A program made the position numbers and the translations under genes. A stretch of DNA of 64,000 nucleotides, taken from the sequence record PZ179882.1; one strand, written 5' to 3'. The notes under the pieces were generated by a model. It saw only the letters and a list, made by a program, of their open reading frames with translations. It ran no database searches and had not been told where the DNA came from. This document shows positions 1 through 28,288 of this stretch, piece after piece (within the stretch, counting starts at the first letter, position 1; each line of letters opens with the position of its first letter). The stretch is from a phage.

Positions 1-795
1 CGACATATCTGGTTTAGAGATGATAGCGATGCAGAAAAGGCTGTTATCTGGGCTACAGATGAGGGTATTTTACATATTCGCAATAATCATGGGGGTTCAT
101 TTAGTCATCACTTCCAGGGTGCAATGATTAAAGCGGGAGAGCGTGTTCCATATAATGGTGAATACGCTCTTATCCGTGGTGATATTTCAGGTGGTGCATG
201 GGTAGACTGGCGAGAGCGTCCGGCTGGATTGTTGGTAGACTGTCAGGACTCACGAAATCAAGCATATAACATTTGGAAAGCTACTCATTGGGGCGAACAG
301 CACCTTGCGGCGATGGGTGTTCATGCTGACGGTGGTAATCCTCGTGTTGTATTGCATGTGGGTGGGAATGATTATGCATTTGCATTTAACGGTGATTTTA
401 CTGCTGGTGCTGCTGTATATTGTAACGACGTTTATATTCGTTCTGACCGTCGTCTGAAAATTAATGTTGAAGACTACGAAGAGAATGCGGTGGATAAGGT
501 AAATAAACTCAAAGTTAAAACCTATGATAAAGTTAAATCTCTTTCTGACCGCGAAGTTATCGGCCATGAGATTGGTATTATCGCACAGGATTTGCAAGAA
601 GTATTACCGGAAGCTGTTAGCACTTCTAGTGTCGGATCTCAGGATAACCCAGAAGAAATTTTAACAATTTCAAACTCTGCTGTGAACGCGCTTTTAATTA
701 AGGCCATTCAGGAAATGAGCGAAGAAATTAAAGAATTGAAAACGCCTCTCTTTACTAAAATTGCTCGCAAAATTAGTAAATATTTTAAATTCTAA
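1..795 (+). CDS. 37: Long tail fibre distal subunit gp37, C-terminal part (5' end outside window)
   Basis: Frame 1 is open from nt 1 to stop at 795 (track ORF 124..795 is an internal Met). Position immediately upstream of gene 38 and t. Contains SDRRLK motif (Ser codon 442-444) typical of autoproteolytic intramolecular-chaperone C-termini of fibre proteins. Confidence 0.7.
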   Translation, partial: RHIWFRDDSDAEKAVIWATDEGILHIRNNHGGSFSHHFQGAMIKAGERVPYNGEYALIRGDISGGAWVDWRERPAGLLVDCQDSRNQAYNIWKATHWGEQHLAAMGVHADGGNPRVVLHVGGNDYAFAFNGDFTAGAAVYCNDVYIRSDRRLKINVEDYEENAVDKVNKLKVKTYDKVKSLSDREVIGHEIGIIAQDLQEVLPEAVSTSSVGSQDNPEEILTISNSAVNALLIKAIQEMSEEIKELKTPLFTKIARKISKYFKF

Positions 796-831: not shown

Positions 832-1614
832 ATGGCAGTAGTTGGAGTTCCTGGCTGGATTGGAAGTTCAGCCGTAAATGAAACGGGCCAGCGCTGGATG
901 AGTCAAGCGGCTGGTCAATTAAGATTAGGTGTTCCTTGCTGGATGAGTCAATTTGCAGGTCGCTCAAGAGAAATTATTCATACACTTGGAGCAGATCATA
1001 ACTTCAATGGTCAATGGTTCCGAGATAGGTGTTTTGAGGCAGGTAGTACACCTATAGTGTTTAATATCACTGGAGATTTAGTATCATATTCTAAAGATGT
1101 TCCTTTATTCTTCATGTACGGAGATACACCGAATGAATATGTTCAACTGAATATACATGGTGTAACGATGTATGGCCGTGGCGGGAATGGCGGTAGCAAT
1201 AGTCCTGGCTCAGCTGGGGGTCATTGTATTCAAAATGATATTGGTGGGAGACTAAGAATTAATAATGGCGGAGCTATTGCTGGCGGTGGCGGTGGCGGTG
1301 GCGGCGGATATTATTCTCCTTTTTCACAAATGAGATTGACCTTTGGCGGTGGCGGCGGTCGTCCGTTTGGCGCTCCGGGCGGATCTATTGATATGCAATC
1401 AGGAGCAACTGCTGGTACTATTTCTGCGCCTGGCGCAGGGTCTGTGAACGGTATCTACAACGGCGGGTCTGGTGGTGAAGTTGGCTCCGCAGGAGGTAGA
1501 TGTAATATTCGTGGTCAAGGATATGAATACGATGGCGGAGCTGCTGGTTATGCCGTCATAGGGTCTACACCGACATGGCAAAACGTTGGAGCAATATATG
1601 GTCCAAGAGTATAA
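832..1614 (+). CDS. 38: T2-type receptor-recognising adhesin gp38 with glycine-rich motifs
   Basis: 260 aa. N-terminus [37 protein letters not shown] matches remembered conserved gp37-binding domain of T2/K3-type gp38. Poly-Gly islands flank variable segments. ATG at 832 with GGAG Shine-Dalgarno. Confidence 0.8.
1282..1308 (+). repeat. (GGN)9 codon repeat encoding poly-Gly in gp38
   Basis: ggcggtggcggtggcggtggcggcgga; a second shorter GGN run at about 1341-1357. Confidence 0.8.
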
Positions 1615-1644: not shown

Positions 1645-2301
1645 ATGGCAGCACCTAGAATATCATTTTCGCCCTCTGATATTCTGTTTGGTGTTCTAGA
1701 TCGCTTGTTCAAAGATAATGCTACCGGGGAAGTTCTTGCTTCCAGGGTAGCTGTCGTAATTCTTTTGTTTATAATGGCGATTGTTTGGTATAGGGGAGAT
1801 AGTTTCTTTGAGTACTATAAGCAATCAAAGTATGAAACATACAGTGAAATTATTGAAAAGGAAAGAAATGCACGCTTTGAATCTGTCGCCCTGGAACAAC
1901 TCCAGATAGTTCATATATCATCTGAGGCAGACTTTAGTGCGGTGTATTCTTTCCGCCCTAAAAACTTAAACTATTTTGTTGATATTATAGCATATGAAGG
2001 AAAATTACCTTCAACAATAAGTGAAAAAACACTTGGAGGATATCCTGTTGATAAAACTATGGATGAATATGCAGTTCATTTAAATGGACGTCATTATTAT
2101 TCCAACTCAAAATTTGCTTTTTTACCAACTAAAAAGCCTACTCCCGAAATAAACTACATGTACAGTTGTCCATATTTCAATTTGGATAATATCTATGCTG
2201 GAACAATAACCATGTACTGGTATAGAAATGATCATATAAGTAATGACCGCCTTGAATCAATATGTTCTCAGGCGGCCAGAATATTAGGAAGGGCTAAATA
2301 A
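1645..2301 (+). CDS. t: Holin T (lysis inhibition-sensitive holin)
   Basis: 218 aa, one N-proximal TM segment and large C-terminal periplasmic domain; matches remembered T4 holin length and sequence; SD AAGGAGG upstream. Confidence 0.9.
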   Translation: MAAPRISFSPSDILFGVLDRLFKDNATGEVLASRVAVVILLFIMAIVWYRGDSFFEYYKQSKYETYSEIIEKERNARFESVALEQLQIVHISSEADFSAVYSFRPKNLNYFVDIIAYEGKLPSTISEKTLGGYPVDKTMDEYAVHLNGRHYYSNSKFAFLPTKKPTPEINYMYSCPYFNLDNIYAGTITMYWYRNDHISNDRLESICSQAARILGRAK

Positions 2302-2735: not shown

Positions 2736-3014
2736 TCATTCGAAATAATCTTCAATTTCGTAATCATGGACGTAAAACATTATAGTTTTTAATACATCAT
2801 CAATACTTTTTCCTGGAGCTGGAATTACATAAAAATATCCCGCCTTTGAGTTATCTTTATAAGTTCCAACCAAGAAATCATTATTCTCGAGATGTAGTTC
2901 TTCAACTAATTCATTAACAATTGAGTGGTATAAATTTGGTAGAAGCTTATATAGCTTTTCTAGAATATCAATTTTGATTGTATATTGAACCACAGATTGA
3001 GAATCAATAATCAT
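2736..3014 (-). CDS. arn: Arn-like anti-restriction (McrBC inhibitor) protein
   Basis: 92 aa acidic protein immediately downstream of motA-side cluster and upstream of asiA, same size and position as T4 arn; sequence not independently recalled. Confidence 0.55.
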   Translation of the reverse strand: MIIDSQSVVQYTIKIDILEKLYKLLPNLYHSIVNELVEELHLENNDFLVGTYKDNSKAGYFYVIPAPGKSIDDVLKTIMFYVHDYEIEDYFE

Positions 3015-3119
3015 AGACCTTCCCCTTATGTTTCTGTTTGCGATTAGATTCTTTAAACGCTTTCTTCTTATCCTTATGGACAGAAGCTTTATTAAAATTA
3101 TGTTTTGCGACTAAATTGT

Positions 3120-3317
3120 TCATAGTGCTGAATTACCCTCTCTCAAACATTTGCATGTGAATGAAAACTTTTTAGCTACACCACATTCAAATATATGTTC
3201 TCTTAAATCACGTGTGTCAGTATATCCCATCTCAACAATAAAATGCCGTATTAGATTTTTATCTTTATCATTGAGAGAGTTAAAATAATCAGATTTTGAA
3301 TTAATTTCCCTGGCCAA
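3120..3317 (-). CDS. Hypothetical protein (arn.x/motA.1-like), 65 aa
   Basis: ORF track; tightly packed between arn and motA; contains CxxC-like FTCKC. Confidence 0.4.
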   Translation of the reverse strand: MAREINSKSDYFNSLNDKDKNLIRHFIVEMGYTDTRDLREHIFECGVAKKFSFTCKCLREGNSAL

Positions 3318-3597
3318 ATTGAATCACCTTCAGTTGACGTTTTAGTTCTTTTATCATTTCTTCGTTCATCGCAATATAAAGATCGCGTAAAGCGGGTTTT
3401 AACATTCCATTTACTGGAGAACTAAATGGACATACATAATCTTTTCCTACGAGCTTTTTAGTTAATTCCATGTCACAAAACTGAAATGCTGGTTCATTGG
3501 CATAAATTCCCCAATTAGTTGACATCATTTTATTGGCATATTCCAATGCTTGGATTTGATTAGTAATTCCATCAATTTGAAACTTTTTAATATTCAT
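3301..3597 (-). CDS. Hypothetical protein, 98 aa
   Basis: ORF track; co-oriented, start overlaps stop of upstream gene. Confidence 0.45.
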   Translation of the reverse strand: MNIKKFQIDGITNQIQALEYANKMMSTNWGIYANEPAFQFCDMELTKKLVGKDYVCPFSSPVNGMLKPALRDLYIAMNEEMIKELKRQLKVIQFGQGN

Positions 3598-4058
3598 TAG
3601 TAAAGGTCCTCAGAGTAAAGTTCTTTTTCACTACCACCGCGTTCAATACGTACTTGTCCAGCGTAAGTTGCAATAATCATTGCTTCTTCACGTGTCCAAT
3701 AATTACTATATTGGTCAATAAACCCTTGATCATCATCACAAACTTGCTGAGTAACTAATTGAGGTTTAACTACATCTAAAACTTCTGCCATATCTTTAGA
3801 ATAATGACGAGCACCCGGAATAATAAGAGTTCGTCCATCTTTTAATCTAAAACGGTTGGCTGCGCAAACAATCCGTCGTTGGTACTTTTGGTTTTCATCC
3901 CAGTATGCAGACTGCCAACAGATTTCCGGAACTTCTTTTAAAATATCTTCTTCTGTGCATTTATAACCATGTGCTTTAAATTTTTGAACAAGACTTTCTG
4001 GAGTTTCACGAGATAAAGGAACATTCAGCATTTTTAAACGATTAATAAATGGGTTCAT
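3597..4058 (-). CDS. Hypothetical protein, 153 aa
   Basis: ORF track; ATGA-type stop/start coupling with neighbours. Confidence 0.5.
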
Positions 4059-4384
4059 TTAAACCATCCTTTAATACGCTGCCACAAAGTTTTCTGTTGA
4101 GCTTTGTTAACACCAATTGAGCGAATAACTGGTTGAGATTCCTGGAATTCTTTATAATCAGCAAGGTAAATTTCGTAAGCTGAATCCGTAAAGGAACTTA
4201 TCGCTGCCATGAAATTATTGCGAATACCTACTGGAGCATCTTTACTTTCACGAATAATCATGTATTTGCCAGTCTTAATCTTTACAATAGTTCCAAGATA
4301 AGCCCCATGGTACCAGATGTCCCATCCCTCTTGAGTAGGTTCTGCGCAACGACGAAGTTCATTGACAATTTCTAACTTGTTCAT
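4055..4384 (-). CDS. Hypothetical protein, 109 aa
   Basis: ORF track; co-oriented in arn-motA interval. Confidence 0.5.
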
Positions 4385-4394
4385 TATTTATTCC

Positions 4395-17626: not shown

Positions 17627-18127
17627 TTATCTCATTTCAATAAAATCTACGAGTTCAGCATGCGATTTGCGGAACATTACTTGGTGCCTGCCAATGATAA
17701 CTTGATCATCTGGAACTTCGTATACAGCGAGATAAAATCCTTTAGAAGATAATTCTTCCCGCTCTTCTCGTGTGAACCATCTCATCATATCATATTCACT
17801 AGCGAAAGCAAAATGATAAAGAGCTATAAACCATCCTGGAATATGATATTCTACTCCAACATAATCTTTCTTGAACTTAGTATTAATTACTATATTAGCG
17901 TTTTTAACTAATAGTTTATCTTCGTGTGGTAAAGGAATTCTTTTATTATTATCGCTATGATGCATAAAATTAGGTCTGTCATAACCTACGTGTAATAGCC
18001 ACTCTTCGCTCCATGAATCTATTATACTCCTGTACGGCGTTATTTGAACACAAAGATTTCGACGTATTGTTATAGCATCTTCACAATCAAGAATACTAAA
18101 CGATGATTCAACACGATAAATTTTCAT
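17627..18127 (-). CDS. Hypothetical protein, 166 aa
   Basis: Track ORF 17627..18166 begins at TTG; ATG 18125-18127 with GAGGA SD is downstream of promoter 18155-18184. Confidence 0.5.
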   Translation of the reverse strand: MKIYRVESSFSILDCEDAITIRRNLCVQITPYRSIIDSWSEEWLLHVGYDRPNFMHHSDNNKRIPLPHEDKLLVKNANIVINTKFKKDYVGVEYHIPGWFIALYHFAFASEYDMMRWFTREEREELSSKGFYLAVYEVPDDQVIIGRHQVMFRKSHAELVDFIEMR

Positions 18128-25747: not shown

Positions 25748-25951
25748 TCATTTTGAATGCTCTATAATTAATTTTAAGGCTTCTTCACTGACAAAAATTT
25801 CATCAGGACCTTCTTCTACAACCCAATCAACCACACGAAGCTGATTAGATAAGAGCTCACATACGAGCTCTTTGTCATAATTTTTAAATAGCTGGTCAAT
25901 ACGTTTCTTACGGGCTTTCTTAAGCTGGCGTTTATTTAAACGAGTCATCAA
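25748..25951 (-). CDS. Hypothetical basic protein, 67 aa
   Basis: ORF track; start overlaps 56 stop. Confidence 0.45.
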   Translation of the reverse strand: MMTRLNKRQLKKARKKRIDQLFKNYDKELVCELLSNQLRVVDWVVEEGPDEIFVSEEALKLIIEHSK

Positions 25952-26466
25952 TAACCTCGGTCTTGACGAGCGAAGTTTTCAGCATTTTTCAGATAATAAA
26001 GTTTAAAGATTTCTTCAGCCGTAAGACCGAGACCTTGGAACATATTAAGAACGAAATGAAGAATATCAATCATTTCAAATTTAATTTCCAACTGGTCTTG
26101 TGGAGACAAATCAGTAATTAGAGTTTCACGGCGTTCACCGTGTTGAGCTTTCCAAGGCTTCCATACAGCAGATGCATCTTTTTCACCATTGCTCATACCG
26201 CCAAGAGATGTCAGAAGTTCACGGAATTCATCGTCAATATAATCTTTCTGATTACGTAGCCAATCAACAACTTCACCTGCAGTAGCCAAATCATCAGGAT
26301 GACGGTTATATTCAGGTTTATCTTTAGCTAAACGAACCTGTAAAGATTTCTGCATATCAAGCATAACCTGCAGCGGGTCTTTTTCATCACCGAGAATATC
26401 CCAGTATTCGTTTTGAGCTTTATCAGCGCCTTCAATCAGTTGTGAACATTCATTAAAGTAAGCCAT
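25948..26466 (-). CDS. 56: dCTP pyrophosphatase gp56 (MazG-like)
   Basis: Track ORF begins at GTG 26557-26559; ATG at 26464-26466 gives 172 aa starting MAYFNECSQLIEG, close to T4 gp56 length (171). Confidence 0.85.
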   Translation of the reverse strand: MAYFNECSQLIEGADKAQNEYWDILGDEKDPLQVMLDMQKSLQVRLAKDKPEYNRHPDDLATAGEVVDWLRNQKDYIDDEFRELLTSLGGMSNGEKDASAVWKPWKAQHGERRETLITDLSPQDQLEIKFEMIDILHFVLNMFQGLGLTAEEIFKLYYLKNAENFARQDRGY

Positions 26467-26537
26467 TATTTTTCCTTTCAATTCATGGATTAGTAGATTA
26501 ATTATACAATAAATATATAAAGCAATAAGGAGGACAT

Positions 26538-26738
26538 ATGGTACAAAAATTAATGGCACTTGTTAATGCCATCAAAGGTAATAAGAAACGTATAGCTTTT
26601 ACTATTTCTGCTATGGTAGGAATTTTACTCTGGAACTTTATTTTATCACCAATTGCAATTGCGCATGGTGTTAATATTCCAGTAGTTACTCTTGATACAT
26701 TCGTAGATCTAGCATTTGCTTTAGTTGGGTTAATTTAA
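26538..26738 (+). CDS. Hypothetical small membrane protein, 66 aa, on opposite strand
   Basis: ATG 26538 preceded by TAAGGAGG at 26526-26533; two hydrophobic segments; lies in the 56-61 intergenic interval. Confidence 0.4.
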   Translation: MVQKLMALVNAIKGNKKRIAFTISAMVGILLWNFILSPIAIAHGVNIPVVTLDTFVDLAFALVGLI

Positions 26739-27763
26739 ATCTTGGCATATTTAGATAACCGCATTTTAGCCATTAACCCCTGGGCAATATTATTTTTCAT
26801 ATATTCCATAATTTGTTCAGGGGTTGCACCTTCCTTTCTAATCATATCATTAACATCTTTTGATTTCCAGGGAGATTTATCCCAAAACATAACCCTTTCT
26901 CCTGCATCAACTAATTTAGTCATTCGCTTGATAGTGTCAGGGTGACGAGGTTCATTATCTAAAACCCACACTCGTCTATCTTTAAATGGAACAACTTCTA
27001 GGTCTAATTGACCACCCGTAATAGCTATACCATTTTCAATAAAAAGTGAATCTATAGGTCCTTCTAGAACATATACATCGCCATCTTTAACTCGTTCGAC
27101 TCCATATATTTTTGTTGCCTCAGGATAAGCTTTGATGGTGATATATTTTTGAGGAGCATCTTTCTTTAATGCGCGTCCTTGAAAAGACTCAGCTTTTCCA
27201 TTAGCATTATAAATTGGAATAACAAGACGAGGCTCAGGTATTTCCTTTTTATATGTTCCTGGTGCTATGCTATTAACTAATTTAGGCCATTCAGTTGTAA
27301 ACCAAAGATATTTCCATTTATCCTTTGGAATGCAGCGAGCTTTTACGTATTTTATAATTGGATGGTCTTCCGCCAGTTTATCTAATCTAATGCATGACGG
27401 AAGAGATTTAATTATTTTCTTCTCAGGTTGTTTAGGAAGTTCTTTAGGTTTTTCTACTGGACGACTTTTACCTTTTTCTTTTCTTATTTCAAAGATATAC
27501 TCACGATATAAATCAGGTTCAAACTCCTTTAAATATATTCCTATTGGTGCATGATAGTTACAGTTATAACAGTGAATATTTCCTTCATTATTATCACCAT
27601 AATACCATCCACGGGCTTTATTTTGGTCGGTTTTTGAATCTCCACAAACAGGACATCTAAACCGTAATTTAAAAGTTGAACTATTATTTACTTGTGCGAA
27701 TTTAGGTAAATGAGCTAGCGCACGATATGCAAACTCATTATCAATCCAAGGTATTGATGACAT
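26735..27763 (-). CDS. 61: DNA primase gp61
   Basis: 342 aa as T4 gp61; N-terminal zinc finger CPVCGDS...CYNC; ATG verified 27761-27763. Confidence 0.92.
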   Translation of the reverse strand: MSSIPWIDNEFAYRALAHLPKFAQVNNSSTFKLRFRCPVCGDSKTDQNKARGWYYGDNNEGNIHCYNCNYHAPIGIYLKEFEPDLYREYIFEIRKEKGKSRPVEKPKELPKQPEKKIIKSLPSCIRLDKLAEDHPIIKYVKARCIPKDKWKYLWFTTEWPKLVNSIAPGTYKKEIPEPRLVIPIYNANGKAESFQGRALKKDAPQKYITIKAYPEATKIYGVERVKDGDVYVLEGPIDSLFIENGIAITGGQLDLEVVPFKDRRVWVLDNEPRHPDTIKRMTKLVDAGERVMFWDKSPWKSKDVNDMIRKEGATPEQIMEYMKNNIAQGLMAKMRLSKYAKI

Positions 27764-27931: not shown

Positions 27932-28288
27932 TTAACCTCTATTCATAAAAGCATTAAAAATTTGGTCATCAATCGATGGAATAGCAACCTTTTCGGCATC
28001 ATTTAGCAAATCATTAATTTCATCAGATAGCATAACGCATGTACCTTTATTTCCTGTAATTGTTACTGCGCAATTACGAACGTTTTCTTTATCAAATTTT
28101 AGGTTAATATTTTCGTAGTGAAAATCCTTTAATGCCGAATATATCTTTAAAATGAAATTGTCTTTTACTACAATAAAACCGACTTCACTGTTAAAACGCG
28201 GCTCATGAAAACTGTAATAAACCTTTTCATCTATAAAATCGTATGAAATTTTTTCCATTTTTAAATATGGAAATTCAGAACTATACAT
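27932..28288 (-). CDS. Hypothetical protein (61.1-like), 118 aa
   Basis: ORF track. Confidence 0.5.
   Translation of the reverse strand: MYSSEFPYLKMEKISYDFIDEKVYYSFHEPRFNSEVGFIVVKDNFILKIYSALKDFHYENINLKFDKENVRNCAVTITGNKGTCVMLSDEINDLLNDAEKVAIPSIDDQIFNAFMNRG

Follow-up and report, generated by a model that had tools for sequence, protein, structure and literature searches.

A conserved plus-strand gene for a predicted small membrane protein between genes 56 and 61 of T4-like phages

The analysed stretch of phage DNA, referred to as the window in the following, has a length of 64 kb and represents a T4-like segment (Tequatrovirus) whose 56–61 region shares ~97% identity with, among others, phage L14 and Shigella phage A2. 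Between the minus-strand genes 56 and 61 it contains an ORF on the plus strand, which a first-pass annotation of the sequence had placed at 26538–26738 with a length of 66 codons; these coordinates were confirmed exactly. The ORF starts with an ATG at 26538, ends with a TAA at 26736–26738 and encodes 66 amino acids. It is convergent with the primase gene, the two stop codons sharing 4 nt, and 68 bp separate its start codon from that of the divergent gene 56. The features of the locus, and the plus-strand genes at the start of the window, are as follows:

124–795, plus strand: ORF at the window start, late gene region
832–1614, plus strand: ORF at the window start, late gene region
1645–2301, plus strand: holin t (phrog_860, E 4e-107), with AATAAATA at 1619–1626 and the Shine-Dalgarno sequence AAGGAGG upstream
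25948–26469, minus strand: gene 56, NTP pyrophosphohydrolase/dCTPase (phrog_173), left neighbour of the ORF
26501–26527, minus strand: MotA-type middle promoter for gene 56 predicted by pattern scan, TATTGCTTTA - 11 nt - TATAAT, a perfect match
26508–26515, plus strand: candidate late-promoter -10 element AATAAATA, the A(-13) variant of TATAAATA, with a predicted start at ~26521 and a leader of ~17 nt
26526–26533, plus strand: Shine-Dalgarno sequence TAAGGAGG, 4 nt before the ATG
26538–26738, plus strand: the ORF (phrog_2024; named RB32ORF030w in LR746311), 66 codons, protein-coding
26550–26575, minus strand: terminator-like hairpin followed by TTTTTGT, within codons 5–13 of the ORF
26592–26663, plus strand: predicted transmembrane (TM) helix, codons 19–42, from hydropathy and an AlphaFold2 helix at 16–42 (pLDDT 83–86), with the motif W32-N33-[FY]34 ... 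P38
26691–26735, plus strand: C-terminal hydrophobic/acidic helix LDTFVDLAFALVGLI, codons 52–66 (AlphaFold2 helix at 52–63), predicted to be periplasmic
26735–27763, minus strand: gene 61, DNA primase (phrog_47), right neighbour of the ORF

The ORF had been described as preceded by a strong ribosome-binding site at ideal spacing, and this description is borne out by the position of TAAGGAGG at 26526–26533, 4 nt from the ATG, and by the conservation of the Shine-Dalgarno (SD) sequence among the homologues. The occurrence of TAAGGAGG alone is not significant because ~1.25 chance copies are expected in the 64-kb window, where it is found once; the SD sequence is meaningful because of its position and its conservation in homologues, not because of its mere presence. 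Nearly all diverged homologues carry an SD sequence of the (A)AGGAG(G) type 4–7 nt before the ATG, which has the form GGAGG in Kanagawavirus. Folding of the plus-strand mRNA gave no significant hairpin sequestering the SD sequence or the start codon (z -0.22). The ORF had also been called the only convincing plus-strand gene. This holds for positions 2.3–64 kb of the window, where it is the sole free-standing plus-strand ATG ORF of at least 30 amino acids with an SD sequence, and does not hold for the first 2.3 kb, which contain late plus-strand genes including holin t.

The ORF product matched phrog_2024 with an E value of 1.5e-31 over the full length of the profile (residues 2–66 aligned to profile positions 1–65 of 65). 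It is thus already catalogued and listed as ‘hypothetical protein’ in hundreds of genomes, and the gap concerns the T4 reference annotation only; in one relative's record the ORF is annotated as ‘putative membrane protein’. Substitutions between homologues track the codon frame of the plus strand, and dN/dS values range from 0.07 to 0.43 (Nei-Gojobori, unsaturated pairs). Conservation in relatives had been named as a point on which a genuine plus-strand gene for a small membrane protein would stand or fall, and the ORF is indeed kept across genera under purifying selection. Judged by its sequence, it is a genuine conserved gene for a predicted membrane protein of 66 residues.

A tblastn search with the ORF product retrieved homologues in 693 phage records, ~500 of them at 90–100% identity and ~190 at 44–56%; the records inspected from the latter group belong to Mosigvirus (ST0) and Gaprivervirus (DK-13, TH40). 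Searches with remote members of the family added a remote branch of 183 phage records, which comprises Jiaodavirus, Kanagawavirus and T4-like phages of Klebsiella, Citrobacter, Salmonella, Enterobacter and Edwardsiella. The family spans at least seven enterobacterial T4-like genera, and no phages of non-enterobacterial hosts were seen among its records except for two labelled Pseudomonas. An exhaustive HMM profile search of 1.84 billion cluster representatives yielded only eight matches, all of them belonging to the phrog_2024-type family, which is therefore a narrow one; no link to any characterised family emerged from this search. Weak profile matches to the family alignment (E ~1e-4, 22–28% identity) were accepted because they are syntenic, being located on the opposite strand between dCTPase and primase genes on T4-like contigs. 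One apparent remote homologue, P0076, was discarded, as its sequence equals that of the T4 protein translated with T in place of every C (A>V, T>I, P>L, H>Y, R>C); this entry of the protein collection is probably an artefact of a bisulfite-type sequencing run that contained T4 DNA.

The slot of the ORF is constant: in Tequatrovirus, Mosigvirus, Gaprivervirus, Jiaodavirus, Kanagawavirus and metagenomic relatives it occupies the interval between genes 56 and 61 and is oriented against both. This position is kept despite changed neighbours, with dam inserted on one side in T4 and OMNI12 and a homing endonuclease gene on the other side in DK-13. The latter gene (2872–3621 of the extracted Gaprivervirus DK-13 locus) splits the ORF from the primase gene and removes the usual convergent overlap of 4 nt.

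Two hydrophobic segments had been noted in the product and were recovered by Kyte-Doolittle analysis, the first at residues ~19–42 with 15-mer averages of up to 2.07, and the second at residues ~49–66 with averages of 1.6–1.95 and including D53 and D57. Residues 1–18 contain five basic and no acidic residues. The charge amounts to +5 on the N-terminal side of the TM helix and to -2 after it, since the 24-residue tail has two Asp and no basic residue, and on the basis of the positive-inside rule an N-in/C-out topology is predicted. AlphaFold2, run with the family alignment, modelled helices at residues 2–14, 16–42 and 52–63 with a mean pLDDT of 77; with its 15 residues the C-terminal helix would fall short of crossing a bilayer. 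The product thus looks like an inner-membrane protein that crosses the membrane once in N-in/C-out orientation and exposes a short tail to the periplasm. Family-wide, no exchange occurs at W32, P38 and G44 and hardly any at N33 and P48, and position 53 is acidic (D/E); V56-D57 is conserved in the close branches. The tryptic peptide of the product that begins with IAFTISTMVGILLWNF is very hydrophobic. A possible signal-peptidase-like site (P-x-A-x-A followed by HG, with the cut after A42) could release a peptide of 24 amino acids. An uncleaved anchor is favoured, because the residues at -1 and -3 would not allow cleavage in all family members and the ‘signal’ part itself shows high conservation. 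Pfam and NCBIfam scans of the product gave no match at E values up to 10, and a Foldseek search of the AlphaFold2 model against BFVD returned family members and uncharacterised proteins of T4-like phages, with nothing informative among them.

A late or middle promoter upstream of the ORF had been suggested as a feature to look for, and an invariant late core was found on the ORF strand. The heptamer ATAAATA, which equals the T4 late -10 element TATAAATA minus its first base, is present without variation 13–22 nt upstream of the ATG in 16/16 distinct contexts, the flanks of which are unalignable between genera; the chance of its occurrence in the relevant upstream interval is ~0.007 per lineage according to base composition. 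In the window as a whole TATAAATA was counted once (10 expected), VATAAATA four times (30 expected) and the ATAAATA core five times (~40 expected), the last corresponding to an ~8-fold depletion. A depletion of ~4-fold was found in the first 50 kb of T4 (11 ATAAATA sites, ~43 expected). Such depletion agrees with a selective removal of stray late promoters from early regions. Of the other four late-motif copies in the window, three front soc, holin t and the endonuclease VII gene 49 (phrog_423). The fourth, AATAAATA at 4385–4392 on the minus strand, abuts the ATG of a phrog_1594 gene of 109 amino acids (4055–4384, minus strand) and is too close to that ATG to be its promoter. Among the 11 sites in the first 50 kb of T4, four have an ORF of at least 40 amino acids within 45 nt, namely soc, gene 49, the ORF described here and an ORF at the position that RefSeq assigns to I-TevII. 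I-TevII is expressed late.

In a published list of T4 late promoters 32 of the 50 are perfect and nine carry A(-13), the commonest variant (PMC2988020), and T(-13) is poorly conserved among T4-like phages (PMC1524935). On this basis AATAAATA in the window represents the commonest accepted late-promoter variant. The early and middle transcripts of T4 are all of one polarity, and late transcripts may have either (PMC2988020). At the ORF a TATAAATA-type -10 element lies ~6 nt upstream of the predicted start and is accompanied by no -35 element, as in the late promoter class. Late, gp55-dependent transcription of the ORF is thus strongly supported as a prediction. All 16 contexts have A, G or C at -13 and none has the consensus T, which suggests a conserved sub-consensus promoter and selection for modest expression. 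The candidate promoters of T4 itself and of Gaprivervirus have G or C at -13, a rare late-promoter variant, and in Jiaodavirus and the metagenomic relative L017 the proximal ATAAATA is located 13–14 nt from the ATG, where the predicted start would fall inside the SD sequence. The ORF is built like soc, gene 49, I-TevII and holin t, late T4 genes located within early regions: a late -10 element, a short leader, the SD sequence and the ATG follow each other closely, and its A(-13) variant also fronts t and 49 in the window. The ORF differs from these genes in that it alone opposes the direction of the early genes inside the 2.3–64 kb block, in that its -13 base is not T in any lineage, and in that its late status is deduced from sequence.

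The putative late -10 element of the ORF sits, on the opposite strand, within the spacer of the predicted middle promoter of gene 56, and Mosigvirus, Gaprivervirus and L017 have comparable middle promoters at this position. The stretch of ~40 bp would be a compact case of two promoters sharing their DNA, a middle one on one strand and a late one on the opposite strand. In T4 the junction between 56 and dam retains the same -10 sequence and a MotA-like box, whereas ATAAATA and the SD sequence stay with the ORF beyond dam; this module is therefore attached to the ORF, rather than being a component of the gene 56 promoter. The terminator-like hairpin on the minus strand (26575–26550) folds at -12.4 kcal/mol with a z-score of -3.05. 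Its place is annotated as ‘terminator’ in phage fPS-65, and it is present in Tequatrovirus and not conserved in Mosigvirus. In Tequatrovirus this hairpin probably ends the transcription unit of gene 61, and the untranslated tail of the primase mRNA would consequently cover the whole ORF in antisense. No plus-strand terminator was found after the ORF in the window (fold z-score 0.26). Jiaodavirus (L027, ~2697–2712) and L017 (~4203–4224) possess GC-rich hairpins resembling bidirectional terminators between the stop codons of the ORF and the primase gene; the window has none there.

The best overall explanation, which we hold to be correct with a probability of about 80%, is that the ORF is a bona fide late-class phage gene encoding a small inner-membrane protein. 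Once replication is under way, host RNA polymerase together with gp55, gp33 and the gp45 clamp would initiate at the variant late promoter AATAAATA. The resulting mRNA would have a short leader and a perfect SD sequence at its 5' end; it would oppose all early and middle transcription, share DNA with the middle promoter of gene 56 and be antisense to the untranslated tail of the primase (61) transcript. In the product the basic amphipathic N-terminus would be cytoplasmic, the TM helix at residues ~19–42 would carry the W-N-[FY]...P motif, and the tail of 24 residues would be periplasmic. The protein would most likely act late, by making helix-helix or juxtamembrane contacts to a partner in the membrane. 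As its likeliest role we tentatively propose, with a confidence well short of an even chance, that it modulates envelope functions or lysis timing via such a partner; this role is put forward because the protein belongs to a class of small, late, weakly expressed membrane proteins confined to phages of enterobacteria. Alternative roles are late superinfection exclusion, membrane-bound assembly and anti-defence. The more specific idea of an as yet unrecognised component of late envelope control (a holin or antiholin partner, or a late exclusion factor), locked into the late phase by the sub-consensus promoter and the antisense overlap, is doubtful.

Two known systems offer themselves for comparison. 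Like the ORF product, the T4 antiholin RI is small and has an N-terminal membrane segment rich in Gly, Ala, Ser and Thr that closes with F-[VI]-L-S-P and leads into a periplasmic C-terminal part; in RI, however, this part is a globular domain of 70 residues, whereas the ORF product has only 24 residues there. A functional analogy with RI is speculative. Homology to the SAR domain of RI (FILSPIAIA versus FVLSPSIEA in RI) was considered and rejected, the comparison with genuine RI giving a BLASTP E value of 0.32 and an hhalign probability of 0.35%. With type I toxin-antitoxin-like loci the ORF shares a small hydrophobic membrane peptide and an mRNA fully complementary to another transcript. In contrast to those loci it has no dedicated antisense small RNA; its complementary partner is the untranslated end of the primase mRNA, which precedes it in infection, and the late promoter better explains the timing.

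The convergent overlap with gene 61 in nearly all lineages and the location of the late promoter inside the middle-promoter spacer of gene 56, owing to which the two promoters cannot fire together, would also fit a locus whose main function is exerted by RNA. The late plus-strand transcript would then act as antisense to the 61–56 transcripts in their shutdown or processing, or would interfere with the gene 56 middle promoter near oriA, and the peptide would be secondary. Several sites of the T4 genome are transcribed from either strand, each at its own time (PMC2988020), and the T4 annotation places oriA just inside gene 56. That RNA is the main function is nonetheless unlikely, as purifying selection at the protein level and the conserved motif indicate that the peptide matters. 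In addition, the homing endonuclease gene of DK-13 parts the ORF from 61, the GC-rich hairpin between the stop codons in Jiaodavirus and L017 would halt a late transcript before it reaches 61, and dam parts the ORF from the gene 56 promoter in T4. An RNA role alongside the protein role, by antisense pairing with the primase mRNA tail or by occlusion of the gene 56 promoter, is possible; it would not be the whole story because of the constraint on the protein and because hairpins or inserted genes uncouple the ORF from its neighbours in some lineages.

As a small, membrane-embedded protein with at least one TM domain (hydropathy, AlphaFold2 helix 16–42) and a candidate late promoter that shares its A(-13) variant with the T holin gene in the window, the product might itself be taken for a holin or pinholin that permeabilises the inner membrane. 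One UniRef record, a variant of 63 amino acids, is even labelled ‘Holin’, and M1 and M6 in Tequatrovirus loosely resemble a dual-start motif. Holins typically possess a highly charged, hydrophilic C-terminal tail, whereas the C-terminus LDTFVDLAFALVGLI is hydrophobic and contains two Asp and no basic residue. Moreover, the canonical T holin is already encoded at 1645–2301 (phrog_860, E 4e-107), no holin family of Pfam, NCBIfam or PHROG was matched (phrog_2024 being listed without assigned function), M6 is missing in most genera, and the holin matches found by Foldseek had E values of at least 7. The ‘Holin’ label was rejected, as it stems from a single UniRef record in another cluster and the named members of the 156-sequence cluster of the ORF are all ‘hypothetical’ or ‘uncharacterized’. 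A holin function is thus very improbable, and we conclude that the ORF product is not itself the holin. It is hardly credible, finally, that the ORF is incidental and unexpressed and the region conserved for minus-strand functions (the 3' tail or terminator of 61, the promoter region of 56 or dam), for although the ORF is situated wholly inside the untranslated minus-strand stretch from 61 to 56, is overlapped at its 5' end and upstream region by the terminator-like hairpin and the middle promoter and was left unannotated by the T4 curators, substitutions follow the plus-strand frame (dN/dS 0.07–0.43), the frame, start codon, SD sequence and W-N-[FY]..P..G..P motif persist down to ~22–28% identity where the DNA is unalignable, the hairpin is not conserved outside Tequatrovirus, and in T4 it is the ORF that ATAAATA and the SD sequence accompany, not the gene 56 promoter.

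The gene is ordinary in kind, and the main value of a predicted late membrane-protein gene at this site is that it fills a hole in the reference annotation of T4, one of the most thoroughly studied phages. Its T4 homologue is located at 17738–17938, is 97% identical and falls within a 309-bp ‘gap’ between dam and 61. The candidate late promoter of T4 is at ~17.71 kb with a predicted start at ~17723, and both this ATAAATA and the start codon lie where the minus strand of T4 is non-coding. It is unannotated in both NC_000866.4 and AF158101.6, and RefSeq lists no plus-strand CDS in the first 50 kb of T4, whereas the records of other T4 isolates list the ORF as ‘hypothetical protein’. Owing to its omission from NC_000866 and AF158101, the ORF is not covered by annotation-based T4 studies such as an RNA-seq and proteomics study (PMC9697503) and a CRISPRi-ART study (PMC11879866), which counted or scored annotated features only. 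No published work on the ORF was found in a literature search by name, T4 Ribo-seq and TSS maps. Three points make the gene of interest: its absence from the T4 reference annotation, its antisense position, which is unique in the early region, and its putative late promoter interleaved with a middle promoter. Once annotated, it would be the sole annotated gene in the first 50 kb of T4 with a direction opposite to that of the early genes, and a conserved membrane microprotein specific to enterobacterial phages would be added to the candidates for unexplained late envelope, lysis and exclusion phenotypes.

The 56–61 neighbourhood is a hotspot of gene gain and loss. The remark in the first-pass annotation that T4 has dam nearby proved correct, as dam sits between 56 and the ORF in T4; in OMNI12 dam and one further ORF occupy this interval. 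Its statement that the window has no methyltransferase-sized ORF here also agrees with our searches: tblastn with T4 Dam reached a best E value of 0.65 in the window, and a DPPY-type check of the whole window found four [DNS]PP[YFW] motifs, all of them in stop-to-stop ORFs of at most 98 amino acids, and no Dam homologue. Compared with T4, segF is missing from the window, and the position of T4 61.2 is occupied by an ORF of 118 amino acids (27932–28288; RB32ORF033c in LR746311) with weak similarity to gp61.2 (E 1e-6).
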